From IMG/VR virus record IMGVR_UViG_2734482574_000014: a stretch of 39,870 nucleotides of DNA; one strand, given 5' to 3'. Below are positions 2,120 to 38,936 of this stretch, in pieces. The notes below the pieces were generated by a model, which did no database searches, had not been told where the DNA came from, and was given only the letters and a program-made list of their open reading frames with translations. This DNA is from a virus. Taxonomy: Duplodnaviria > Heunggongvirae > Uroviricota > Caudoviricetes. Numbering within the stretch: the stretch's first letter is position 1; each line of letters opens with the position of its first letter. Both the position numbers and the translations under genes were made by a program.

Positions 2120-2286
2120 TGATACCGGTTCATTTGCCTGCCCGGATGGGGAAGCAGGATTGACTGCTCCATAAGCAGCTATATTTCTGAATACGAAATA
2201 CTATCCAGCGATTACATATGGCTGGATAGCGGCAAAGATGTTTTCATTAGTGTCAAACCGGCAGAGGACACCACCGGTTTGTATTG

Positions 2287-2541
2287 TTACATCATGGTAC
2301 TGTCAGTTCCGGGCTGAGCCGGGTCTGGTTGCTCTGGCTGCGCGTCGGTTTTCGGCTCATTATCAGCATCACTGGCCGCAACTGCTGGCCCAATAAGTTT
2401 TGCCAGCACTTCATCAACGTAAGTGTCGATTTGTGCCTCAAAATCCTTGCGGACCTGCGCTTTCAGCAACTTATTTACTTCACCGGAATACAGTGCCTGT
2501 TTTACCAGGTCTTCAGTGACGGTGCCTTTAATTTCTGGCAT
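2287..2541 (-). CDS. hypothetical acidic protein, 84 aa
   Basis: ATG preceded by strong AAGGAGG RBS (spacing ~7). Confidence 0.6.
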   Translation of the reverse strand: MPEIKGTVTEDLVKQALYSGEVNKLLKAQVRKDFEAQIDTYVDEVLAKLIGPAVAASDADNEPKTDAQPEQPDPAQPGTDSTMM

Positions 2542-6055: not shown

Positions 6056-6073
6056 GAAGGCCTTCCGGCCTTC
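6056..6073. terminator. hairpin between convergent Sv' cassette and chaperone gene (GAAGGCC-TTCC-GGCCTTC), followed by TTTATTA on plus strand
   Basis: 7-bp perfect stem seen directly; weak U-tract. Confidence 0.35.
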
Positions 6074-6077
6074 TTTA

Positions 6078-6599
6078 TTACTGTGGCTGCTCAGGCCATT
6101 TAATGGCGTTAAATTCAGCTTCTGTTTTAATGGCGGGTAGTTCCATTTTCTTCACCTGACTGATGTATGCCATCCATTGGGTAAGTGCTGCTCTGTCTTC
6201 ATCGCTGATGGTGCCCAGTTGTAGCTCCGTTCTCCAGTCATTAATTTTTTCATATGCCTGATTAAGATATGACTGGCGCATTGCTTCCAGTTTTCTTGCG
6301 TAGTTAACCGGAATACGGGAGATTATGCCATTATCAAACTTCCAGTTTCCTGAAATATCCGTGCCTTCAGGGAGTTCATCGACCTCAACCACAGAAAACC
6401 CCGCAGGATACAGCGCCGAGGCGTCCTGTGATATTGAGCAGATAACGCCGCTGTCAGGTGTTATGCAAAGTTTATATTTTTTGGTGAATAATGGCAGGGA
6501 TTCGTAGAAATCCTTACCATCTTCACTCTGGAAATACTGAACATTATTACCATATGGCATATTTTCAGGATAATAACGGGTTATATTTTTTAGTTCCAT
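6078..6599 (-). CDS. tail fibre assembly chaperone (Mu U / Tfa-like)
   Basis: Immediately downstream of tail fibre gene, inside invertible segment; size ~170 aa; typical Tfa-like composition. Confidence 0.75.
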   Translation of the reverse strand: MELKNITRYYPENMPYGNNVQYFQSEDGKDFYESLPLFTKKYKLCITPDSGVICSISQDASALYPAGFSVVEVDELPEGTDISGNWKFDNGIISRIPVNYARKLEAMRQSYLNQAYEKINDWRTELQLGTISDEDRAALTQWMAYISQVKKMELPAIKTEAEFNAIKWPEQPQ

Positions 6600-7541: not shown

Positions 7542-8101
7542 TAAATAGTCTCCTCTTCATGGCTGTTTGCATAAACGTAAATAAACGTCTGCCATGCAGG
7601 CTTATAACGGTTCAGAATACATTCCAGCGCACCGCCTTCATAAATACGCAGCGGCGTGAGAATATCATCCAGCACATTCATATTCCGGTAGCCGGTTTCA
7701 CTGTTAATCGTGACAATACTGACCCACTGCGAATCCGGTGAGGGCTGAATGTCAATCTGATAACCAAACTCCGCCGCAAACCGGATATAAAATTCACGGT
7801 TCAGCGAGGGCTTCATCCGGTATTTATTTCCGGCATAACGCTGTCGCTCCGTGAGGGTGGCTCCGGCCATATCACACTCGGGAAGCCCGAGATAACGCTC
7901 CCAGTCTTCCAGCAGCAGGCGCGACGTGTCAGGGAAACGCTCGGCAAGCAGCTGTTTACCCGTCCAGGATACACGCGCTGTCGAATGACTGAGGCCCAGA
8001 CATAATGATGCCAGTACGGATGACGGACGCTTGTCCCATGCCAGCCCGTCAGGCAGTAACTGCAACAGGGCGCGCTGATGCGGGGTCAGGGTTACAGCCA
8101 T
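7541..8101 (-). CDS. baseplate/tail protein (Mu gp48-like)
   Basis: Position between baseplate J-like gene and tail fibre; ~186 aa. Confidence 0.55.
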
Positions 8102-9174
8102 GTGATTTCTCCTACCGTCAGCAGCTCACTGTCTCCCGCCTGAACTGACGTCAGCGGACTGCGCACTTCAAAATCCTCCAGATTTTTCACCCCTGCCACC
8201 GCCCGCCAGAAAGACGACGGCAGAACCAGACCGCCGGGCCGGGATTCGTTATACAACAGGTCGGTCAGCGCCTGTTTTACGGCCGCCTGATTCTCCGGTG
8301 TTTTCGGGATGATCCTGATGCTGAAGGGCACCGGCTTATTGGTCAGTTTAAACACGGTCACCGTCGGCCCCAGAGGCTGTCCGACAGGCTGGCCGGTCGC
8401 CGGATCATCATGACTGCGGATATAATCCGCCACCCGCTGAACATCACCGTCACCGGGGAAAATATCCGGGTTATTATCCTGAACAAACGTTACCCCCACG
8501 CTGCCCGCCTGCGGCCATTCCGGGCGGCACCATGCCCGCGTCACGCCCGGCACTTCACGCGCCCAGCGTTCAAAATCATACTGCGTGCCGCCGGACGGTG
8601 GATTCTGCACCCGGAAAACCAGACGGGAAAGCAGCTCCGGCACGGTTTCCACATCCGCACCACCGGTGATCCCCGTTCCGGTCACCGTGGCCGTCTGGTT
8701 GATCCCCGCCTGCGGTGTGATAAATGTCAGTTTTGTCCCTGCCGGGGCATTCCCCGCACGACCGGCACTTTCGGCTTCCACACTGACATTCAGCGTACCG
8801 GCCTTACCGGTCAGGGAGGTGGTGATACGGTAAACCACGCCATCACTTCGCTGGAGAAGCACACCTTCCTTGATCCCCGCATCCGTGGTCAGCATCAGCT
8901 GAACCGGCCCGTCCCCCCGAGAGGCAGGCTTACGCATGACGCCCCAGAATGCACAGTGTTTCAGCAGTTCGGCTTCATCGGCTTCGGTCGGGATGATCTG
9001 ACGCGCAATCCAGGCCAGATGCTCATGCTCCTGAGCAGATAACCCTGCCTGAGCGTAAGCAATGGCATTCAGGGTGGTTTCATTCACACCCGGCTGCGAG
9101 CCGGGCAGGCGCTGGCTGATATCCTGCTGTGTCTGCGTGATTAACTGTGCCAGCGGTAAAGGCTGATAAGGCAT
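8092..9174 (-). CDS. baseplate J-like protein (Mu gp47-like)
   Basis: Size (~360 aa) and position in baseplate cluster. Confidence 0.65.
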   Translation of the reverse strand: MPYQPLPLAQLITQTQQDISQRLPGSQPGVNETTLNAIAYAQAGLSAQEHEHLAWIARQIIPTEADEAELLKHCAFWGVMRKPASRGDGPVQLMLTTDAGIKEGVLLQRSDGVVYRITTSLTGKAGTLNVSVEAESAGRAGNAPAGTKLTFITPQAGINQTATVTGTGITGGADVETVPELLSRLVFRVQNPPSGGTQYDFERWAREVPGVTRAWCRPEWPQAGSVGVTFVQDNNPDIFPGDGDVQRVADYIRSHDDPATGQPVGQPLGPTVTVFKLTNKPVPFSIRIIPKTPENQAAVKQALTDLLYNESRPGGLVLPSSFWRAVAGVKNLEDFEVRSPLTSVQAGDSELLTVGEITWL

Positions 9175-28615: not shown

Positions 28616-29116
28616 TCAGACTTTCGGCAAATCGTAACGACATAACCATTCATCCGCCGAACGGCGGGCCTCAAGACCGGGGAGTTTTACCCCCTTTGAA
28701 TAAATCCAGCGGATATACTGCTTACAGGACGCGGGCATCTGCCCGGCATTGATAAGGCGCAGGAGCGTGGAGTTGCGAAAGTTCGTTTCACCGGCCCAGA
28801 AAATCCAGGAGGCCAGCGCCACCGTCTGACCACGGGTAAGCGGCACCTGAACATGACGATCGATAGCCGCAAAGGCCCATTTCATGTCCTTTTCCAGCAG
28901 CTCCAGACACTCTTCATCAGTTTTTGTCATCCCCGGTTTCACATCCGGGCCGGTATGGCCGTAACAGATGGTGGGGGTGCCGGTGGGATCAATGTACGTG
29001 GTGTTTTCTTTCCCTTCCCAGTAGCCGGTGTAGTGCGTGGCAATGGTGAACGTCCCGGCTCCGGCCAGAACAAGGGCAATCAGCTTTTTACGCAGGGGTG
29101 CGGGGAGTTTTGGCAT
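28616..29116 (-). CDS. SAR endolysin (phage lysozyme)
   Basis: N-terminal signal-anchor LIALVLAGAGTFTIA followed by E...D...T catalytic motif EGKENTTYIDPTGTPTICYGHTG. Confidence 0.8.
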   Translation of the reverse strand: MPKLPAPLRKKLIALVLAGAGTFTIATHYTGYWEGKENTTYIDPTGTPTICYGHTGPDVKPGMTKTDEECLELLEKDMKWAFAAIDRHVQVPLTRGQTVALASWIFWAGETNFRNSTLLRLINAGQMPASCKQYIRWIYSKGVKLPGLEARRSADEWLCRYDLPKV

Positions 29117-29187: not shown

Positions 29188-29610
29188 TCAGAAAAGCCGT
29201 GGCTGCGTGCGTTCCTGATGCAGGCGACGCTGGTTGCGGATAACGGAGTAAATCTGCGTCTCTGACATCTGGTAGTGGCGGCGCAGGGTTTCAATTTTTT
29301 CGCCCTGGCTCCAGCGGGAAAAAATTTCATTATTGCGCAGTTCGGTGAAAAGGGATTCACCGACCGGGAGATAATAACCACGCCCGCCCATGTACCCGGC
29401 CTGTGCGGCTGCAACCTTACGGGCAAGCATTCCCGCCTGAGCAGGTTCAATCCCCTGACGGTGCAGTTCAGCACTGATCACATCAACCAGGTCCCGCAGC
29501 GTGCCGGGCCAGTTCTTTTTCAGCTCATCATCAGGAATATCATCCAGACGGTCAATCAGCGCGTGCAGCTGTTCGCTGTCACCAAACATGCTCATCTGTG
29601 TTTCAGCCAT
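29188..29610 (-). CDS. Mor/C-family transcriptional activator
   Basis: C-terminal region ...YYLPVGESLFTELRNNEIFSRW...IYSVIRNQRRL resembles Mu Mor (from memory). Confidence 0.7.
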   Translation of the reverse strand: MAETQMSMFGDSEQLHALIDRLDDIPDDELKKNWPGTLRDLVDVISAELHRQGIEPAQAGMLARKVAAAQAGYMGGRGYYLPVGESLFTELRNNEIFSRWSQGEKIETLRRHYQMSETQIYSVIRNQRRLHQERTQPRLF

Positions 29611-29641: not shown

Positions 29642-29680
29642 GTTTAAAATAAAAATCCCGCGCTGTGGCGGGATTTGGGG
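29642..29680 (-). terminator. rho-independent terminator on minus strand, between gemA-like gene and Mor/C gene
   Basis: Stem ATCCCGC/GCGGGAT (29655-29661, 29668-29674), loop 6 nt, followed on minus strand by UUUUUAUUUU. Confidence 0.6.
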
Positions 29681-30193
29681 TTAACGGGGGAATGATTTTT
29701 CATACAGCCTGCAAACACGCTCATAACTCATCACTGCACGTTCCGACATATCCAGGGCTGCCAGCATTTTGCGGCGGTGCCAGCGTTTGAGACGCTCCAG
29801 CACATCAGAGGCCAGCGCGGGTTGTTGCTCCAGCCACTGCCAGTTAGCCACACCTTCGCCGTCGTTCTGCGCGGCCGTCTGCGATTTCACCCAGCGGTTA
29901 AGGGCCGTTTCCCCGCCATCAGAGATAAATCCCTGCCGGTGCATCACTTTCCAGATGGCGCGAATTTTGGCGGTCACCGTACCCGGTTTTAAGGCCCGGT
30001 TAACCGGCTTCTGACGCACTTTAAAACCGCGTTTTTTGAAAACATCCAGCACGCGGGATAACTCACCGGGTGACATATCACGGCAACTGGATTTGCCGGT
30101 GGCTGCCAGCAGCGCGGATGTATAGGTATCATGGTCAAGCTGTAGATCGCGTTTTGCGACATGTATTAAGGTAATCAGGGAAGCGCGATTCAT
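29681..30193 (-). CDS. GemA/gp16-like protein (DUF1018-type)
   Basis: N-terminus ...LITLIHVAKRDLQLDHDTYTSALLAATGKSSCRDMSPGELSRVLDVFKKRGF typical of this family (from memory). Confidence 0.6.
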   Translation of the reverse strand: MNRASLITLIHVAKRDLQLDHDTYTSALLAATGKSSCRDMSPGELSRVLDVFKKRGFKVRQKPVNRALKPGTVTAKIRAIWKVMHRQGFISDGGETALNRWVKSQTAAQNDGEGVANWQWLEQQPALASDVLERLKRWHRRKMLAALDMSERAVMSYERVCRLYEKSFPR

Positions 30194-30206
30194 TATCGTG
30201 GCTCCA

Positions 30207-30235
30207 TAAAAAATGGGCGGTGTTACCGCACCGCC
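30207..30235 (-). terminator. terminator-like hairpin plus U-tract on minus strand, immediately upstream of gemA RBS (possible attenuator)
   Basis: Stem GGCGGTG/CACCGCC (30216-30222, 30229-30235) followed on minus strand by CAUUUUUUAUGG. Confidence 0.45.
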
Positions 30236-30263
30236 ATGTCAATTAACATAAAAGGAAAAATCT

Positions 30264-30503
30264 ATGTCAGATATAAAAAATGCACTTGATGTTGCCGCAT
30301 TCACAATGGCTGGAAATCTTATGGTAACCCTGTTCGATAAGGGGCTGATTTCCCGTGAGGAGGCAATACATATTATCAATCTCGCTCAAAAAAACTCTAC
30401 CCCGGAAAATGCAGAAGATATCCAGGATGGCTCATATATTAATACCGACTGGCATTTCGACAATCTCCGGGCCTGTATGGGGATTACCGCTGAAAAAGAT
30501 TAA
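30264..30503 (+). CDS. hypothetical protein, 79 aa, opposite strand, AT-rich
   Basis: AAGGA RBS 7 nt before ATG; 3' end overlaps convergent minus-strand gene by 20 nt. Confidence 0.4.
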   Translation: MSDIKNALDVAAFTMAGNLMVTLFDKGLISREEAIHIINLAQKNSTPENAEDIQDGSYINTDWHFDNLRACMGITAEKD

Positions 30504-30771
30504 AAATTTTTGCATAATGTTCAGATGTAAGAATTGCTGAACCATCAACACCGAGCCTACGGCGAACGTATTCCTCGCGGGCTATTTTATTATCCAGAGA
30601 TACAGCATCCTTAATCAGGTTAATCTCCCGCTCCATTATCAAAAGGGCTTCTCTGGCTGCAAGATTTTCTTTTATCGCATATTCGATAATGTCCCGCATA
30701 CGTTCAAGCATGCCGATTTTAGCCAGTTCTTCGTCGATAGATTTAGGCGCAAATTTGATTTCTTTTTCCAT
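30484..30771 (-). CDS. hypothetical helical protein, ~95 aa (start at ATG 30771; track ORF uses upstream GTG)
   Basis: ATG immediately after stop of zinc-ribbon ORF (TAATATG); AT-rich. Confidence 0.55.
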   Translation of the reverse strand: MEKEIKFAPKSIDEELAKIGMLERMRDIIEYAIKENLAAREALLIMEREINLIKDAVSLDNKIAREEYVRRRLGVDGSAILTSEHYAKIFNLFQR

Positions 30772-30772
30772 A

Positions 30773-30916
30773 TTATTCATCCTCACAATTTATACATGCA
30801 GTGTCGTCGCCCATATCGCAGTGGTTACATTTTATCTCACCACAATGTGGGCACTCTTTCAGATACTCCGGGTCCTCATTTCCACAGGTGGGACATTCAA
30901 CAATTTGCTCATCCAT
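30773..30916 (-). CDS. small zinc-ribbon protein, 47 aa (four CxxC pairs); below ORF-track size cut-off
   Basis: Hand translation MDEQIVECPTCGNEDPEYLKECPHCGEIKCNHCDMGDDTACINCEDE; GGGGA RBS; ATGGATGA overlap with upstream gene stop. Confidence 0.55.
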   Translation of the reverse strand: MDEQIVECPTCGNEDPEYLKECPHCGEIKCNHCDMGDDTACINCEDE

Positions 30917-31241
30917 TATGTATCCCCTGTAATTCCGGCAAGGCCGAAAGATGGCACCAGTGCGTCACCTGTCCGTCCTCATCTTCAAGGCAGGCTCCGG
31001 TTTCTTCATCAATAAAAAAGCCTTCATACCCCATATGGCCGATGCGCAGTTCCTGTTGGTCACCATACTGAACAATCAGCACGACAGCCTCCATATCAGG
31101 CGGAAATGCGTCATCCAGTGAATGCCAGGGATAACCGCGCAAATCCCCGAAATAAACGCCGGTCAGCGTTCCGCCACAGAGCGGCATTCCGGCGGCACAC
31201 ACAAGAGGTTCATCTGATTCAACAAATAAGGTCGTTATCAT
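30909..31241 (-). CDS. hypothetical acidic protein, 110 aa
   Basis: Translationally coupled within early operon. Confidence 0.55.
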   Translation of the reverse strand: MITTLFVESDEPLVCAAGMPLCGGTLTGVYFGDLRGYPWHSLDDAFPPDMEAVVLIVQYGDQQELRIGHMGYEGFFIDEETGACLEDEDGQVTHWCHLSALPELQGIHNG

Positions 31242-31789
31242 GGCGTTAACTCCCGTAATACAGCGTCCTCGGCAGTCCGGCGACGGTAATAAACTGCGTG
31301 AGCAGAATGTTCAGATATTCCAAACTTTTCGCCAATTTCCCGGAATGACAGACGGCGTGGGTAATCGGAATCACGCAGCTCACGTATAAGACGTACATCA
31401 TCATCAGATATGCGCGTGCCGGGGCGTAACTCTCCGCACTTTGTTAATCCAGCACCAATCATTCCTGCCCGACATCTGACAGAATCTTTATTACGTCCGA
31501 GATATTCTCCCATTTGCTGGCAGGTCATTGTTCTGGCATTTTTTCGAATAAACTTATCTTCATCAGGTGTAAATCTTGGGTGTTTATATTTCAGTAACTC
31601 CGGGTATGAACTGCGCAATACACCAGTCCGGTTATATACAGCCCAGACAGTTCTTTTTATTCTGGCAGCAATATCCTTAACCGGGGTGGATGAATAAAGC
31701 GCAATCAGCAGCGCATCTTCTTCAGGTGTCCACGGACGGACATGAGCGGGGGCGCGACCTTTTAGTCCCATGGGTTGTAATTTCATCAT
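31238..31789 (-). CDS. putative DNA-binding protein (Myb/SANT-like W-x-EED and C-terminal HTH-like segments)
   Basis: PWTPEEDALL and SFREIGEKFGISEHSAHAVYYRR segments. Confidence 0.5.
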   Translation of the reverse strand: MMKLQPMGLKGRAPAHVRPWTPEEDALLIALYSSTPVKDIAARIKRTVWAVYNRTGVLRSSYPELLKYKHPRFTPDEDKFIRKNARTMTCQQMGEYLGRNKDSVRCRAGMIGAGLTKCGELRPGTRISDDDVRLIRELRDSDYPRRLSFREIGEKFGISEHSAHAVYYRRRTAEDAVLRELTP

Positions 31790-31792
31790 GCA

Positions 31793-32308
31793 TCACCCCC
31801 TGACTCGCTTTTCAGCAGCATAAAACTCATCAGACAGTATTTCGGTCATTTTCTGTTTTGCGGGTTTTACGCCGCACTGAAGGTAAATCACATCGTCAAC
31901 GCAGAACCACTTCACAGGGCCAAACAGGATTGCCGAGAAATCAATACCCAACCAGAACAACAGCGCATCGGTTCTGGCATACGTGACGGGCGAATATTCA
32001 CGCCACAGACTGTTCAGTTCATCAGAGGCAACACGCAGGGTTTTAGGGATACGTGATGTGCGCGGTGTGCAGCTCCAGCCATTCGACGCAGTCGGTTTTC
32101 GCCATAAGTCGCGATGAAAAGGATATTTGTCCTCCGTAAAACGCAGTCCCTTAAAGTAAAATCCACTGATACCGGATACAAATACCGACCGGCACGCAAC
32201 ATTCAGCACGGCCTCAAGGCGTTTTGCCTCATCCTTAACTTTCTGGCAGTCCTGCTGGTATTTTTGCCACGCAGCCAGCGCGGAAGGGTTTGATGTTTTA
32301 AAGAACAT
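31793..32308 (-). CDS. hypothetical protein, 171 aa
   Basis: ORF in early operon. Confidence 0.5.
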   Translation of the reverse strand: MFFKTSNPSALAAWQKYQQDCQKVKDEAKRLEAVLNVACRSVFVSGISGFYFKGLRFTEDKYPFHRDLWRKPTASNGWSCTPRTSRIPKTLRVASDELNSLWREYSPVTYARTDALLFWLGIDFSAILFGPVKWFCVDDVIYLQCGVKPAKQKMTEILSDEFYAAEKRVRG

Positions 32309-32841
32309 TACGCCACCTCCGCAGATATCCCGGCAGGCGCTGCTGTCCGGTCAACAATCAGGTAGCGCAGAACATGTTCAGTGATATTCCAGCCGCTTAA
32401 ACCGCAGATAATGACGCCCAGGCGTATGTCGATATACGCCATCACAAACTGGGGCACGCCTTCTTTCATGGCCTGCTCATCAACTTCAGCCACCACATAA
32501 ACGGTTTCACAGGTCAGAACGCCCTGAGCAAATTCCCACGCCATCGACGGAATATCATGCCCCTCAATCCATGGCAGGGATTTTCTGAAGCCGCACCACT
32601 GAACATCATCAGCCGCAGATTCCTGGCTGCATTTGCGACGAACCGGCTGCACCGGGCGGGGACGCGGAATATCATAAAAACCGTTACATTCCGTCAGCAC
32701 GCCTGCATCAACCGCATCACGCAGAAAATAAACCATGGAGGATGGCGGCATATTCATTTTTTCAGCCAGTACACCGCAGGTCAGGCGGCCATAAATACAC
32801 AGCCAGTTTTTAACCCCTTCAAGCACTTTTGCATCAATCAT
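32308..32841 (-). CDS. hypothetical protein, 177 aa
   Basis: ORF in early operon. Confidence 0.5.
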   Translation of the reverse strand: MIDAKVLEGVKNWLCIYGRLTCGVLAEKMNMPPSSMVYFLRDAVDAGVLTECNGFYDIPRPRPVQPVRRKCSQESAADDVQWCGFRKSLPWIEGHDIPSMAWEFAQGVLTCETVYVVAEVDEQAMKEGVPQFVMAYIDIRLGVIICGLSGWNITEHVLRYLIVDRTAAPAGISAEVA

Positions 32842-32986
32842 GATTTATTTCCCCACCACATTATTAATGACGATATAAACGTATTTCATATTTCTTAACC
32901 CTTATTTTCTGTTTTCAGGCGCAAGCAGTCCCCTGACGCGAGCGCCATAATTAAAATGAAGTGATATTTAATTGATTAATGCGGTG

Positions 32987-33517
32987 TTATTTATTCAGTC
33001 CGGCGTCCTGTTCAAAAGGCTCGACATAAAAACTTTCAGCGCCTTTATTCACCTTGATACCGGCAATGCCTTTCACAGCATCCGGCTCCGCCAGGACGGC
33101 TTCCTTGTTCACTTCCTCTTTCGTGCGGATGAAACGCTCAAGCCCCATACGGCGCAGCATTTCAATCACACCTTCCACATCACGGCTGACGCTGCATGAT
33201 GGCGTTCCCAGCCGCCATGACACCGTTCCGGTGGTCAGATTGGCTGTTTTGGTTTTGCCGCCGTTCGTCAGCTCATCACGGTTGGTTTTGCACCAGTCCT
33301 GAATCCCTTTAAAAAGCACTTTGATTTGCTTTTTAAGATTTTCAATCTGCGGCGTATAACGGGCGGTGATTTCTGCCACTTCGTCATTCATCGCCGTTTC
33401 CAGGCGCAGCGCCTCTCGCTGAATATCTCCCAGGGTGCGGATATCACGGCTGACTTCTTCCCGGGTCTGCGGTGCCGCCTCGGCTGCGGCCTTTAATTTT
33501 GTAACGCGTTTAGCCAT
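32987..33517 (-). CDS. gam: host-nuclease inhibitor Gam (Mu Gam / Ku-like)
   Basis: Long near-colinear similarity to Mu Gam as recalled: ...IRTLGDIQREALRLETAMNDEVAEIT...CKTNRDELTNGGKTKTANLTTGTVSWR...ERFIRTKEEVNKEA...EPFEQDAG. Confidence 0.85.
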   Translation of the reverse strand: MAKRVTKLKAAAEAAPQTREEVSRDIRTLGDIQREALRLETAMNDEVAEITARYTPQIENLKKQIKVLFKGIQDWCKTNRDELTNGGKTKTANLTTGTVSWRLGTPSCSVSRDVEGVIEMLRRMGLERFIRTKEEVNKEAVLAEPDAVKGIAGIKVNKGAESFYVEPFEQDAGLNK

Positions 33518-33528
33518 TTTGTTTTTCC

Positions 33529-33822
33529 TTATTGCAGTGTGCCTGATGCTTTATGCACGCGGTGGCGTTTAATGATGGCATCCGCTCCAAAAGACTGTGC
33601 AGATGCCTGAAATTCCGCTGAGAGAAACTGAATAATTGCAGGACTGTGATACTGGAGAATACTTGCATAAACGTCACAGAGTGACGTCGGCCTGTTATCC
33701 GTATCACGTTCTGTTTTCACATCCACTCCAATCTTTTCATGCACTTCAACACAGTCATTGCCTGCCAACTTTTCGTCATGCGAAACATGATTAAATTCAA
33801 AAATAACGCGTACTTTGCTCAT
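33529..33822 (-). CDS. hypothetical protein, paralogue 2 (starts MSKVRVIFEF)
   Basis: Shares N-terminal MSKV-R-IFE(F/Y) and central ...AEF.A... pattern with adjacent gene. Confidence 0.5.
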   Translation of the reverse strand: MSKVRVIFEFNHVSHDEKLAGNDCVEVHEKIGVDVKTERDTDNRPTSLCDVYASILQYHSPAIIQFLSAEFQASAQSFGADAIIKRHRVHKASGTLQ

Positions 33823-33826
33823 GGAA

Positions 33827-34099
33827 TTACCCCTGTTGATTAAATTCATTACCGTTAATAACCCCGGAAGCCATGCCTCTGTCTTTCATGAATGCACTGG
33901 CTTTCATTGCCACAAACTCTGCGAAGTTTCTGCTTTCTGCCAGCATAACCACCCCAAAAATCATGGCGGGTCCATTATCTTTCTTCTTTATTCCGGTTGA
34001 ACGTATATCCAGACTTACCCCTCTGTGCGTGCTGCCATCAGAGTTTTTGCAGATAACATCTTCCTTGTATTCGAAAATAATGCGTACGACTTTACTCAT
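33827..34099 (-). CDS. hypothetical protein, paralogue 1 (starts MSKVVRIIFEY)
   Basis: Tandem with 33529..33822. Confidence 0.5.
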   Translation of the reverse strand: MSKVVRIIFEYKEDVICKNSDGSTHRGVSLDIRSTGIKKKDNGPAMIFGVVMLAESRNFAEFVAMKASAFMKDRGMASGVINGNEFNQQG

Positions 34100-34377
34100 C
34101 CTCTGGTCCTCGTTCTGTTTGGATAACTGACCCGGCGTCTAACCTCACGGCAGAACCGAATCATGGCATTAAAGGCTTCTTCCTCCGTCACCGCTTCCGG
34201 TATCCCCGGAACCAGTAACTGCTCCTGTTCATCACGTCCATGACGCGCCATAACCTCAATCACATGCCGTACCGTGGCAGGCTTTCCGGCAACTATCGGC
34301 AATGCACCTTCCGGCAGGACGTAACCAAACTCAATAAGACCACTCGACCACGCCCATGCAATGAGATTTTTTTTCAC
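34096..34377 (-). CDS. hypothetical protein, 93 aa
   Basis: ORF in early operon. Confidence 0.45.
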   Translation of the reverse strand: MKKNLIAWAWSSGLIEFGYVLPEGALPIVAGKPATVRHVIEVMARHGRDEQEQLLVPGIPEAVTEEEAFNAMIRFCREVRRRVSYPNRTRTRG

Positions 34378-34378
34378 C

Positions 34379-34645
34379 TCACACCTCCCAGTAAACCGTG
34401 CAGCCGCTGATGCGGGTGGCCTTCACACGGCGGCGCAGGCCGTTGGTCTGTATGGTGATTTCAATTTCACCGGTTCCCTGCACGTTGCCTACCGGCGGCG
34501 TGGTTTTCAGTGCAAAACGTTGCGGATAGCGCTTACTGCGTTCCAGTACCGCACCGGCAAGTTCGGTCAGACGGCGCGCGCTGTTCAGGGAGTCGAATAA
34601 ATTCATTTTGTTACCGCAGGATTGCATATTCATATAACACCTCAT
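34379..34645 (-). CDS. hypothetical protein (~83-88 aa)
   Basis: ORF in early operon. Confidence 0.4.
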   Translation of the reverse strand: MRCYMNMQSCGNKMNLFDSLNSARRLTELAGAVLERSKRYPQRFALKTTPPVGNVQGTGEIEITIQTNGLRRRVKATRISGCTVYWEV

Positions 34646-34873
34646 TTAGCTGACTTGTTTCGCACCAACAGAACGGCATATTCCGCTGTAAACTTCTGTC
34701 GCACCTTCGCGATCAAGTCCGGCAGATATCACCATTCGTGTGCGGTCATTAAATTCAAAAAGTAAATCGCCACATTCTTTATTTTCGGCCAGTGAAATCA
34801 CCTTCACGTTATCGAAATTAACCAGGTAAAAGCGTCCGTAAATATCAGGAATATTAAATACCGCCATAATCAC
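34646..34873 (-). CDS. small protein at Mu kil position (75 aa)
   Basis: Immediately downstream of B-like gene, as Mu kil. Confidence 0.4.
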   Translation of the reverse strand: MIMAVFNIPDIYGRFYLVNFDNVKVISLAENKECGDLLFEFNDRTRMVISAGLDREGATEVYSGICRSVGAKQVS

Positions 34874-35811
34874 ACCTGTGAGAGTAATTCAGGGTTGGTA
34901 TAAACCTCTTTAAAGGCCGCATTAATATGTTTTTCTGTCAGCGCCGCGCCTTCACCGCTGGCGGTGAGCCACGCCTGGTTAAGCGTATGTGTCAGAACGC
35001 GTAACGCTCCCGGCTTTTCAGCGATAGCCTGCATGACGGCCAGCTCGGCCTCACCACTGATCCCCCACGCCATGGCAATGGCCAGCACATCCGCCTTTTT
35101 GGCCTTGCGAAGTTGTTTTGTACGGGCAAGACGGCTGAACAGGCGCGATAAATCATCAAAGGCGCGGCGTCCACCTTTAAACAATCCGCGCGGGTTACCA
35201 ATAAGCACCATCCCGATCCCCGTGGCGTCCTGAATTGCCCGGAGTTGCTCCAGACCGTCAATACCAAGATGATCCGCCTCATCCACAATCACCAGTCCAC
35301 GCGTTCCCATCAGGCGACGGCGGATGGCGCGGGATAATGCCCCTTTGTTCGCGCGGGTGTAATCAATCCCCAGCGCATCGGCCAGCTCCAGCAGACACTC
35401 CGTGACGCTGGAGTGCGCGGGTGACAGGGTGATCATCCAGGTGTTTGGTTGCTCCTGGCAGTAATTACGGGCAGTGGCCGTTTTACCCACACCCGGTACG
35501 CCCACAATAACGTTAATACAGCCCATCAGGCGAACCGCCTGAAACAGTGCGCGCAGCTCCTGGACTGTCTGAGTTTCCACAAACTGCGGCGGTTCCGGCA
35601 GTGCGCTTTGTTTATTCCAGTTCTCATACCAGGAGCGCAGGGAAGCAGCCACAGCAGCGTTATCGCCTTTATATTTTCCCTTACGGAAAGCCGATAATGT
35701 GCCGTCGGAAATTCCCGCCTCTCTGGCGATGGCATACTGCGTCAGTACGCCGCCATCAATAAGTTCATCAATGGTCTTGATTACATCGTTAATATCGGTC
35801 ATATTATTCAC
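34870..35811 (-). CDS. B: MuB-like ATP-dependent target DNA activator
   Basis: 313 aa with Walker A GVPGVGKT, directly after transposase gene. Confidence 0.85.
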   Translation of the reverse strand: MNNMTDINDVIKTIDELIDGGVLTQYAIAREAGISDGTLSAFRKGKYKGDNAAVAASLRSWYENWNKQSALPEPPQFVETQTVQELRALFQAVRLMGCINVIVGVPGVGKTATARNYCQEQPNTWMITLSPAHSSVTECLLELADALGIDYTRANKGALSRAIRRRLMGTRGLVIVDEADHLGIDGLEQLRAIQDATGIGMVLIGNPRGLFKGGRRAFDDLSRLFSRLARTKQLRKAKKADVLAIAMAWGISGEAELAVMQAIAEKPGALRVLTHTLNQAWLTASGEGAALTEKHINAAFKEVYTNPELLSQV

Positions 35812-35884
35812 CTCGCTTGAGACAGCATTCTCCGAGACTGAAACCTCAAATAACCTGAGTCACCCCTCGGGTTATTTTTTTATT

Positions 35885-37972
35885 TCAGGCCAGCGGATCA
35901 CTTTCTTTTAATTTCGCTTCGAGCAGTTGCAATCCCCGCTGGAAATTACGCTCGTATTCTTCATCAGGTTCATCGTCAGCGACCGGTTGCTGAACGGTCA
36001 CCGTATTACCCACAGGGCGGTATATGTTTTCCAGCCAGGGCTCCTGCGGCTTGTGCTCCAGCACGTTGACAACCTCATCCTCGGCATCACGGATTTTTTC
36101 CTCTGCGCGTTTACGCATGCCTTTAAGGCGCTGCTGCTGTTTGTAGTATTCCGCGCTGACAGGGAAGGCTTCGCGTTTATTGCCGTCCCATACCGCCTCG
36201 CAAATCACGCTGCCATCCGGGCGGCGCACGGTAATTCGTTCGGCATCATGAATGTCATAGCTGATAAGTACCTTACGGCCATGCTCGTCACGCAGCTCGG
36301 GCGCGTAGTAAATATTATTCAGCCAGCGTATTTCACAGCGTCTTACAGGGCGCTCCACCATCGGCCGGAACATATCCCGCAGTTCAACATCGGACAGCCA
36401 TTCAATTTCCGTGTCCTCTTCCGCCAGGCGTTTTTTTCTGAACTCCGCCGGGCTGTAATGTTTACCGTTCGGCTTCATGGGTAATTCATCGTGCGGCCGG
36501 TTGTTGTACCACTCAACACCGTCACGAATGGCATCAATCAGTTCAGACCAGGACGGTAAATCACGCATCGCTGACTGCTGCCGGGCGTTCAGCCGTTTGC
36601 CCTGTTGCAGGGCACTGAATGCCGAGCGTAAATCGCGGTTGGTTTTACGTAACGTCTCGCGATCTGCTCCTTTCCCGAAATAGGTGCGGTATTTACGGGC
36701 TATGCGCATCGGTAATGTGCGGTTAAGCCGTTCGATAATGCCCCGTCCCTGCGGATTACCGGCAATCCCTGTCGGGTGATTAATCCCCAGTCGTGGCAGT
36801 ATCCCCACAATCTCCTTATCCAGGACGTCGGCGGTTTCCCCGGAGCCATTATCCGAGTAATACAGAAACGGTTTGCCATGATGGCGAATACCGTGCTGTA
36901 TGGCACCGGCTACGGCGAAAACATTTTCAGCCAGGTCAAGGCTCCAGCCCACCACAAAGCGCGTGCCACCGTCGATAACAAAGGTCACTTCCGGTGCGAA
37001 TGGCCGCCCGTGAACCGGGTGCGCGCATTTCAGCTTCATGCCGTGACCGTCACCAATCCAGACATAATTCACCGGCATTCTGGACCAGTCGCGGCGCGTG
37101 AATCCCTCAAGCTGACGGTATTCACTGCCAGTTACCCGGCCTTTTTGTTTCACCACTTCCGGCAGTTTCTTCATTGCGCGGCGAATGGTGTCATAAGAGG
37201 GCATGATATCGAGCATATAAGGCTCATCAGCGTGCCGGTGCTGCCATTCAGCAACAAAATCCTCGTAAGCCTCGGTCATTGGTCGGCCGTTTGACTGGCG
37301 ATACTGCGCCAGAAATTCGGGCAGCCAGTTAATATCTTCGGCTTTTATTTCCTGGCGTTTACCCGGTGCCAGTAAAAGCAGGCGTTCAGCGGCGTTCTGT
37401 GCCTTGTTAAAGGCCGCAATCCAGCGTTTCAGCGTGATTTCACTCAACGCGCGGCTGTTTCCCTTTTTGGCGTTCGCCGTCTCAACCATTGCCACAATGC
37501 GCTCGTCCAGTTGTGATCGTGCCAGGCTGTTAACGAGGAACCGGATAGCTTTAGCGCAGCTGAAACCGGGTTGTTGCGTGAATTTCAGCACCTCACTGAC
37601 GATCGCAATGCGTGCGTCTGCCACCTGGCGCTGGTTTTCAGTCAGGGCATTGAGGCGTTCGACCATCAGTTGTGGTGATCCGCGATATGCCTCCACCGCA
37701 TCAACCACGGCAGACGAGCGTCTGGCCTTTGTCACCACCGGAGCCGGTGATTCATCGGCTTTTTGCGTCATCAGTTGCAGGGCATAACGTTCGCGTAATG
37801 CCTGCTGTGTCACTTCAGGTAAACAGTCAATGCTGTATTCAAAACCTTTAGCGCCTTTCTTGCGGCGTCTGCTGGTTTCGCTGGTTGCATACTTCCTGAT
37901 TGAATAGCGAACGCCTTGCTCCGTTCCCGGCATCCCCGGTAATCCAACCAGTTCTTTAACTGAAGCAAACAT
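35885..37972 (-). CDS. A: MuA-like DDE transposase
   Basis: 695 aa; position between ner and B. Confidence 0.9.
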   Translation of the reverse strand: MFASVKELVGLPGMPGTEQGVRYSIRKYATSETSRRRKKGAKGFEYSIDCLPEVTQQALRERYALQLMTQKADESPAPVVTKARRSSAVVDAVEAYRGSPQLMVERLNALTENQRQVADARIAIVSEVLKFTQQPGFSCAKAIRFLVNSLARSQLDERIVAMVETANAKKGNSRALSEITLKRWIAAFNKAQNAAERLLLLAPGKRQEIKAEDINWLPEFLAQYRQSNGRPMTEAYEDFVAEWQHRHADEPYMLDIMPSYDTIRRAMKKLPEVVKQKGRVTGSEYRQLEGFTRRDWSRMPVNYVWIGDGHGMKLKCAHPVHGRPFAPEVTFVIDGGTRFVVGWSLDLAENVFAVAGAIQHGIRHHGKPFLYYSDNGSGETADVLDKEIVGILPRLGINHPTGIAGNPQGRGIIERLNRTLPMRIARKYRTYFGKGADRETLRKTNRDLRSAFSALQQGKRLNARQQSAMRDLPSWSELIDAIRDGVEWYNNRPHDELPMKPNGKHYSPAEFRKKRLAEEDTEIEWLSDVELRDMFRPMVERPVRRCEIRWLNNIYYAPELRDEHGRKVLISYDIHDAERITVRRPDGSVICEAVWDGNKREAFPVSAEYYKQQQRLKGMRKRAEEKIRDAEDEVVNVLEHKPQEPWLENIYRPVGNTVTVQQPVADDEPDEEYERNFQRGLQLLEAKLKESDPLA

Positions 37973-37974
37973 AA

Positions 37975-38205
37975 TTACGCGACCTTACGAATGTAGCGGC
38001 TGGGCCAAATCTCCTCGGGCGGCACCCCCAGGCATTCCGCGATAATCCCCTCATACTTGGGAACATGGCGGTATACCGCGTTGTACAGATTGTTCTGACC
38101 CACGCCAGCTTTACGGGCCAGCGCCCTCATGCTTCCTTCTCTGGCTCTGACTTCCCCCAAAATTCTTTGAGGATGCCAATCAGGCTTAACTTCATTTCTC
38201 GCCAT
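37975..38205 (-). CDS. ner: Ner-like DNA-binding regulator
   Basis: Similar to Mu Ner as recalled (…DWH…ALSRQ/ALARK…WP(K)…IIA…EIWPSRY). Confidence 0.85.
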   Translation of the reverse strand: MARNEVKPDWHPQRILGEVRAREGSMRALARKAGVGQNNLYNAVYRHVPKYEGIIAECLGVPPEEIWPSRYIRKVA

Positions 38206-38390
38206 GATTCATCTATCCTAAAAAGTTACGAAATTTGATAACTAAACTTAGTTATCAAGTTTGATATAAGTATTGATCCACTTCTGCTTCATGTAAAGCA
38301 AAAAAAACATCTTTCTTTTGTCTATTGTGGATCAATGGTTGCTGACAACACTAAAAGTTAATAATTTCAAATTGATAGGAAGAAAAGAAA
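38206..38390. promoter_or_regulatory. operator / divergent promoter region between repressor and ner
   Basis: Palindrome GATAACTAA-AC-TTAGTTATC (38237-38256); inverted pair ATTGATCCAC (38272-38281) / GTGGATCAAT (38327-38336); AT-rich. Confidence 0.6.
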
Positions 38391-38936
38391 ATGAACAAGC
38401 AAACAACAACATCTCTTTCTTTTCCTGGTGGTAGAAAAGAAAGCATTGCTGAGCGTCTGAAAAGGCTGATTGGCTCCCGCAGCGTCAGAGCTGCAGCAAG
38501 AGATTGGGGGCTTTCATTTTCAACACTAAACAATTATCTGTCTCGTGGCACTGAGCCATCCTTAAGTGTCGCCCTTCAGATTGCGTCTATCGAAGGAGTA
38601 AGTGTTGAGTGGCTATGTGGATTCAGTGATGCATCACAAGTGAATCGGTGTGAGATCAAGGAAAATCAAGATGAAAGCAAGAAGATAATTATGACGATTA
38701 TCAGCGCACTTGATGAAAAAGACTTAGAGCAGCTATCGAAAAATTTGGTTCTGAATGGAGCCAAGTACTTAGCTCGGTTGTTAGAGCCTGAAAATCAAGA
38801 TCTAATCCGCTTAGAAGGAAGGAAAAGAATAGCTGCATTACAGCTTGAAGGTATGTCTGACGAACGCGTCAGAGAGATTTTGGAAGAAACTGAGAGAAGT
38901 CGCAAATCTAACGCGGTAGAACCAAAAGCGGGTTAA
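38391..38936 (+). CDS. prophage repressor (c-like), N-terminal HTH
   Basis: Divergent from ner-A-B; AGGAAG RBS; HTH-like segment ...AARDWGLSFSTLNNYLSRG... Confidence 0.7.
   Translation: MNKQTTTSLSFPGGRKESIAERLKRLIGSRSVRAAARDWGLSFSTLNNYLSRGTEPSLSVALQIASIEGVSVEWLCGFSDASQVNRCEIKENQDESKKIIMTIISALDEKDLEQLSKNLVLNGAKYLARLLEPENQDLIRLEGRKRIAALQLEGMSDERVREILEETERSRKSNAVEPKAG

Follow-up and report, generated by a model that had tools for sequence, protein, structure and literature searches.

The closest described counterpart of the locus analyzed here lies between gp14 and gemA of bacteriophage Mu. There, RefSeq NC_000929.1 places Mup15/gp15 (NP_050619.1), a gene of 88 aa, on the complement strand, and the older record M64097 lists gp15 as putative ORF F-134. 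GenBank AF083977.1 (7896-8162) instead has a forward 55-aa ORF, Mu_54, in place of gp15 and, ahead of gemA, a separate promoter termed 'semi-early'. Paolozzi and Ghelardini (1992), as cited in PMC3820752, list the gem operon as constitutively expressed in lysogens. Our literature search found no study of gp15 function. Mu also offers a point of reference in its t9.2/Pm junction, where a terminator is located within the annotated middle-promoter region that depends on Mor. Like gp14 and gp15, olg1 and gene 10 of the transposable Pseudomonas phage Fc02 are early-region genes that overlap on opposite strands; PMC9936078 describes one strand as expressed in the lysogen. The Fc02 pair differs in being located next to the repressor and ner and in encoding unrelated proteins, and the exclusion activity described is that of Fc02.

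We analyzed a 39,870-nt stretch of DNA (the window) that holds a Mu-like Escherichia coli prophage whose genes lie on the minus strand. The order gp13-gp14-(reverse gp15)-hairpin-gemA is the same as in Mu (Table 1), and both loci have a convergent 3′ overlap, about 70 nt between the gp15 and gemA starts, low GC content, and homologous proteins. The two gp15 proteins are approximately 20-30% identical and differ in length (79 versus 88 aa) and in overlap with gp14 (20 versus 62 nt); that of the window carries the WHxDNL C-terminal motif of a subfamily different from that of Mu. Further upstream in the window are genes with matches to Mu gp12, gp11, Gam, and others. The downstream part differs from Mu in having a single Mor/C-type gene and, between gemA and this Mor-family gene, a strong terminator-like hairpin (29653-29676, minus strand) with a 9-bp stem, a z-score of -4.2, and a T-run extending to about 29643; the two genes overlap in Mu. 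The single Mor/C-family gene of the prophage is directly followed by lysozyme, and the middle/late regulatory layout thus differs from that of Mu.

Table 1. Positions of the features discussed in the text, counted from the first letter of the window.
Feature	Position	Strand	Basis
Lysozyme gene	28616-29116	-	Locus gene order
Mor-family activator gene	29188-29610	-	Locus gene order
gemA	29681-30193	-	Pfam GemA, E=2e-28; conserved flank immediately 3′ of the cassette
HP1, GC-rich hairpin with T6, terminator- or attenuator-like	30206-30235	-	Terminator scan
Mosaic cassette (AT-rich island), 713 bp	30213-30925		BLASTN breakpoints, slot configurations, GC 0.41
Shine-Dalgarno-like AAGGA	30252-30256	+	Read from the sequence; 7 nt 5′ of the gp15-like ATG
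Mu gp15 (Mup15) homologue, 79 aa (ORF79)	30264-30503	+	phrog_32893, E=1.3e-45
A7 run, frameshift hotspot in the gp15-like gene	30388-30394	+	Indel alleles in relatives
Mu gp14 (E15) homologue, 95 aa	30484-30771	-	phrog_6075, E=5e-44
HP2, predicted intrinsic terminator of the gp15-like mRNA	30554-30593	+	Stem-loop 30554-30583, U-rich tail 30584-30593
Mu gp13 (E14) homologue, 47-aa zinc-ribbon protein (CxxC...CxxC...CxxC)	30773-30916	-	phrog_5584, E=3e-26

The original prediction had singled out 30264-30771 as an AT-rich island holding one small gene on each strand. The GC content computed for this interval is 0.413 (0.415 for 30207-30916), as compared with 0.537 for the whole window, about 0.50-0.51 for the early region (30194-38000; 0.504 computed), and 0.561 for the late region; equally AT-rich windows of 508 nt make up approximately 1% of the early region and 1.4% of the late region. 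The 95-aa and 79-aa genes are both in the ORF list and share the 20 nt of 3′ overlap ascribed to them (30484-30503), the terminator-like hairpin is present on the minus strand just 5′ of the gemA ribosome-binding site, and the antisense geometry holds in that the whole plus-strand gene would be crossed by early-strand transcripts. Relatives (Mu, D108, L053, and L056) carry the region at low rather than backbone GC, and the ORF on the plus strand is both conserved and subject to purifying selection, so that these parts of the prediction stand. Other AT-rich islands of the prophage, at 1211-1801, 6071-6531, and 38011-38750 (the repressor end), have a GC content as low or lower (0.36-0.39). Identical DNA is present in several complete E. 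coli genomes, and in these identical prophages PGAP annotates both the 79-aa and the 95-aa ORF as hypothetical. The 47-aa ORF is left unannotated by PGAP in those genomes and is annotated by gene callers elsewhere.

All three small ORFs of the cassette match PHROG profiles, each of a family of unknown function. In a search of phage DNA, positions 30551-30898 showed 72% identity to Mu, D108, and relatives over gp13 (E14) plus gp14 (E15). The 47-aa protein has a weak match to Zn_ribbon_LapB and has the pattern CPTCG...CPHCG...C..C in common with Mu gp13. The gp14 homologue has 95 aa when read from its ATG and 100 aa when read from a GTG further upstream; it matched Mu gp14 (3e-28), D108 (6e-28), and L058 (8e-13) by phmmer; a gp14 scan starting from L053 returned no matches. 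It is convergent with the gp15-like gene and overlaps it.

The relationship of ORF79 to gp15 emerged from profile comparison. A family profile built from ORF79-type and more distant sequences, with neither Mu nor D108 included, recovered Mu gp15 (E=2e-9) and the D108 ORF (1e-13) and gave no score to Mu_54 or to a DUF2513 protein encoded by sister prophages. By BLASTP, ORF79 matched the D108 ORF (2e-6); plain BLASTP of ORF79 against Mu gp15 gave no match. When 1.8 billion representative proteins were searched exhaustively with a profile, about 26 clusters were recovered, all of 60-120 aa except two long multi-stretch matches. Members share the N-terminal motif fDvAaFtlAGNllvtLvxKGvIsxeEAxxII, and the ORF79 subfamily has the C-terminal motif WHLDNLxAxL, which ORF79 retains. 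Conservation of the protein extends down to approximately 20-40% identity with both end motifs kept, while the DNA has diverged. For the ORF79 frame, alleles of the lineage give a dN/dS of 0.17-0.39, in the same range as for gp14 and gemA. The motif ACATAAAAGGAAA in the Shine-Dalgarno region is common to the window and D108.

Gene arrangement is conserved as well. At every locus examined (Mu, D108, L053-L058, and L062), gp15 is in reverse orientation and converges on gp14 with an overlap of 4-98 nt. The distance from the gp15 start to the gemA start and the gp14 overlap are 70 and 20 nt in the window, 70 and 62 nt in Mu, 69 and 53 nt in D108, 71 and 32 nt in L053, and 74 and 98 nt in L056. The retrieved contexts of L053-L058, L062, and the D108-like L060 include a gp13-like small gene further upstream. 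Three loci found from the gp14 side, namely L064 from a Vibrio parahaemolyticus prophage together with a widespread enterobacterial and a Salmonella-type locus (L065, L066), carry gp15 in three of three cases, one of them missed by the gene caller. The gp14/gp15 pair is kept in L058 and L064 although other genes separate it from gemA. Together, purifying selection, shared motifs, and conserved synteny establish gp15 as a true protein-coding gene and an obligate partner of gp14 in gene order.

Against this stands the reading that ORF79 is not a gene and that the 290 nt between gp14 and gemA are a noncoding gemA leader or promoter, or encode a small forward ORF such as Mu_54. AF083977.1 does annotate both Mu_54 and a semi-early promoter there, the D108 record annotates nothing between gene 14 and gemA, frameshifted gp15 alleles recur, and we found no promoter for the reverse ORF: within 200 nt upstream of gp15 in eight lineages, no sigma-70 consensus promoter is conserved, and in the single 9/12 match (30103-30132) the -10 element differs from allele to allele. 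This reading is nonetheless very improbable in our estimation. Selection acts in the ORF79 frame, the end motifs persist at approximately 20-40% protein identity despite divergence of the DNA, and conservation extends to the orientation, the Shine-Dalgarno sequence, and a terminator of its own. All three minus-strand frames across 30264-30503 are broken by stops, so the window holds no forward counterpart of Mu_54, no conserved counterpart of Mu_54 was found, the D108 ORF list shows nothing like it, and it gets no score against the gp15 family profile. Between gene 14 and gemA of D108, a gap of 376 nt holds a 119-aa gp15 homologue that the record leaves unannotated (GQ357916.1, approximately 7853-8212 complement; 2141-2500, plus strand, in our extract L002). 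The reverse ORFs of Mu (88 aa) and D108 (119 aa) begin approximately 70 nt from the gemA ATG. Comparative evidence therefore supports reverse-strand gp15 as a conserved gene of Mu.

The frameshifted alleles bear on whether the gene is needed. Relatives carry independent indels: the A7 run has lost one nucleotide in two allele backgrounds (L013/L014 and L011/L012), and two nucleotides are inserted in a nearby C run (about 30400) in L008-L010. In total, 3 of the 11 distinct alleles of the lineage are frameshifted, with replacement of the conserved C-terminus, which indicates that gp15 is dispensable in at least some prophages; the alleles look like the decay of a dispensable prophage gene. All indels lead into one alternative open frame (30355-30540), giving products of 91-92 aa. 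Programmed -1 frameshifting at A_AAA_AAC (30388-30394) was considered and rejected, as the alleles arise from insertions or deletions in the DNA and enter the +1 rather than the -1 frame.

The gp15-like mRNA appears to end inside gp14. A hairpin (HP2) starts 51 nt 3′ of the gp15 stop, within the gp14 codons for the motif AREEYVRRRL, and is conserved in 13 lineages as a GC-rich stem of 10-13 bp with a trailing U tract in the gp15 sense. Counted over 10 of these lineages, standard pairs fill 94.5% of pair cells, compared with 36-52% when the partners are slid, and three pairs have changes on both sides; a synonymous Ala codon (GCC/GCT) covaries with the opposing AGG/GAG codon. G-U pairs are frequent and occur only in the gp15 sense, as their counterparts in the gp14 sense would be A-C mismatches, and of the 13 lineages folded, 12 give the more stable structure in the gp15 sense. 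The allele of the window is weakened by an A-C mismatch (30559/30578; ΔG -10.8, z -0.4) that results from a synonymous CGC-to-CGT change at 30559. The gp14 peptide over the hairpin is itself strongly conserved, as AR(D/E)xx(V/I)RR(E/R)L, so conservation of HP2 may in part be a by-product of protein constraint. With strand-specific pairing and covariation taken into account, HP2 is best read as an intrinsic terminator of gp15 mRNA.

A second hairpin, HP1, is located on the early strand, past the antisense of gp15 and ahead of the gemA ribosome-binding site (GGAG, 30205-30202). It reads GGCGGTG-CGGTAA-CACCGCC (30235-30216), followed by CATTTTTTAT, GGAG, and the gemA ATG, and its stem has 7 bp, of which 6 are GC pairs. 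Its folding energy alone is unexceptional (z = -1.3), and its significance comes instead from a position that is conserved in relatives: hairpins with different stems occupy the same place in Mu, D108, L053, L055, L056, L058, L064-L066, and two alternative cassettes of sister prophages (B and C, below). Some lineages share the stem GGCGGTG/CACCGCC, and others have a wholly different one that is nonetheless GC-rich. The U tract is good in the window, L055, and L058 and poor in Mu and D108, that of the window being much better than that of Mu; given the poor tracts of the two phages, HP1 may not be a terminator but a palindrome for protein binding or an element affecting RNA stability. As a GC-rich dyad at the boundary of an early transcript and a separately promoted unit (the 'semi-early' gem promoter of the Mu record), HP1 is comparable to the Mu t9.2/Pm junction, by analogy only; its sequence differs.

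A variant of the palindrome idea extends to both hairpins, which would be DNA sites for a dimeric regulator of divergent gp15 and gemA promoters, possibly gp15 itself or a GemA/Mor-type protein, rather than terminators, with HP2 a by-product of the gp14 peptide motif. In keeping with it, the GGCGGTG/CACCGCC stem is identical in five lineages despite diverged surrounding DNA, HP1 falls within a divergent intergenic region of 70 bp, labelled as promoter in the Mu record, and the same record places the t9.2 terminator inside the annotated Mor-activated middle-promoter region. We nevertheless judge it quite unlikely, because entirely different GC-rich stems and loop lengths take the place of HP1 in L056, L058, and L006, in most lineages the early strand has a U tract after HP1, and the L056 hairpin contains a G-T pair that is tolerated only in early-sense RNA. 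For HP2, the covariation at synonymous sites and the strand-specific G-U pairs likewise speak against it.

The boundaries of the island are sharp. In BLASTN comparisons with the sister prophages L019, L006, L021, and L034, homology breaks at 30212/30213 and 30925/30926, between flanks that are 96-99.7% identical; these breakpoints almost exactly match the originally predicted extent (30207-30916), and the left one falls within the HP1 T-run. The slot between a 110-aa gene and gemA takes five configurations among 31 related IMG/VR loci, with at least five distinct AT-rich cassettes within the lineage, all with a GC content of approximately 0.35-0.45. Configuration A, that of the window, is gp13-gp14-reverse gp15. 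Configuration B has a 130-aa gene, a 102-aa gene, and a reverse DUF2513 gene, and configuration C (e.g. L021) is B without the reverse gene. Configurations D and E consist of one or several forward genes, of which the last encodes a small membrane-like protein and overlaps gemA. The reverse DUF2513 gene of 136 aa, found in this slot in L006 (2109-2519, plus strand) and L019, converges on the upstream forward gene with a 39-nt overlap, and a different GC-rich hairpin precedes gemA there. In two E. coli prophages, L018 (NZ_CP075632.1, 789-1485) and H24 (NZ_CP027586.1), IS1A insertions adjoin or interrupt the region; in L018 the IS1 abuts the start of the gp15-like gene, and gemA through the late genes are deleted on that side. 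A gemA-based scan of genome contigs gave no confirmed relatives. The five configurations and the sharp homology breaks mark the region as a recombinational hot slot, in which the cassette of the window is the Mu-type and presumably ancestral version.

These comparisons qualify the proposal that the island is a horizontally acquired module. The exchangeability, the sharp breaks, and the at least five cassettes agree with it; a foreign insert peculiar to this prophage, placed before gemA, does not fit, as the content consists of homologues of the gp13, gp14, and reverse-strand gp15 of the Mu/D108/SfMu backbone. The further suggestion of a toxin/antitoxin-like or anti-defence function found no such signature in Pfam, PADLOC, NCBIfam, PDB, or fold searches. 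Specifically, Pfam, PADLOC, and NCBIfam gave no toxin, antitoxin, or defence match for the gp14 or gp15 homologue, and PADLOC matched none of the four cassette-region proteins nor the DUF2513 alternative. PDB sequence profiles of the gp14 and gp15 families returned nothing significant, fold and sequence searches of gp15 gave no informative functional match, and Rfam identified no family in the island. The product of ORF79 was modelled by AF2 (pLDDT 81.8) as a soluble helical bundle; the hydrophobic stretch of helix 1, as read from the sequence, extends over no more than approximately 15 residues. The gp15 product is thus predicted to be a small soluble helical protein, and it probably works together with gp14, in protein binding or regulation.

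An acquired toxin/antitoxin-like or anti-defence module, with the convergent overlap providing type I-like antisense control, is therefore unlikely in our view. Features that could be cited for it are the mosaic cassette with its sharp boundaries and low GC, the other cargo that the slot holds in sister prophages (including the reverse-strand DUF2513 gene), the strict pairing of gp14 and gp15 with 3′ antisense overlap, and the precedent of the opposite-strand overlapping genes with exclusion activity in the Mu-like phage Fc02 (PMC9936078). They are countered by the membership of the module in the Mu, D108, and SfMu backbone, by the unmatched toxin, antitoxin, and defence models of PADLOC, Pfam, and NCBIfam, and by the proteins themselves: gp15, as read from its sequence, lacks a hydrophobic stretch longer than approximately 15 residues and is modelled as a soluble helical bundle, and the partners are both helical proteins of approximately 80-100 aa, not a short membrane peptide and an RNA.

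We regard it as likely that the island is a recombinational cassette that carries the Mu genes gp13, gp14, and reverse gp15, with gp15 as a self-contained convergent unit antagonistic with early transcription. The comparisons establish which genes these are and how they are laid out; the logic of expression and any partnership between the gp14 and gp15 products are inferred. With HP2 as its own terminator, gp15 would form a self-contained transcription unit, and its RNA would be antisense to the last approximately 110 nt of the gp14 mRNA. Transcripts of the early operon (Pe) would in turn be antisense over the full length of gp15. Because of this mutual antisense coverage, gp15 expression and strong early transcription would antagonize each other, and gp15 would most likely be made when the early operon is quiet, during lysogeny or at low Pe activity. 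HP1 may attenuate or end early transcripts and so limit read-through into a separately promoted gemA-mor unit. The gp15 unit resembles a phage moron, an autonomous unit of promoter, gene, and terminator in a prophage, in being AT-rich, opposite to the surrounding operon, equipped with its own terminator, and polymorphic in presence or absence at the level of the cassette. Unlike a moron, gp15 is ancient in the Mu family and strictly coupled to gp14, and no promoter for it was identified in the eight lineages searched.

A bolder extension is that gp14 and gp15 form an antisense-coupled toggle resembling a type I toxin-antitoxin system, with gp15 produced only in the lysogen, where it would confer a host phenotype, and silenced by Pe on induction. 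We consider this unlikely. If true, gp15 might exclude other phages or modulate the gem operon, gp15 RNA would trim gp14 expression, and a combined protein-protein and antisense module would be built into the core of Mu-like phages.

The feature of the window is ordinary, if neat, Mu-family architecture, and not a new defence or toxin locus. Its interest lies in the paradigm phage Mu, in which the 'semi-essential early' genes gp13-gp15 are without an assigned function and public records disagree on the coding strand. For work on Mu early regulation or lysogenic conversion, the gp14/gp15 pair, with its putative terminator embedded in gp14, would provide a concrete unit.
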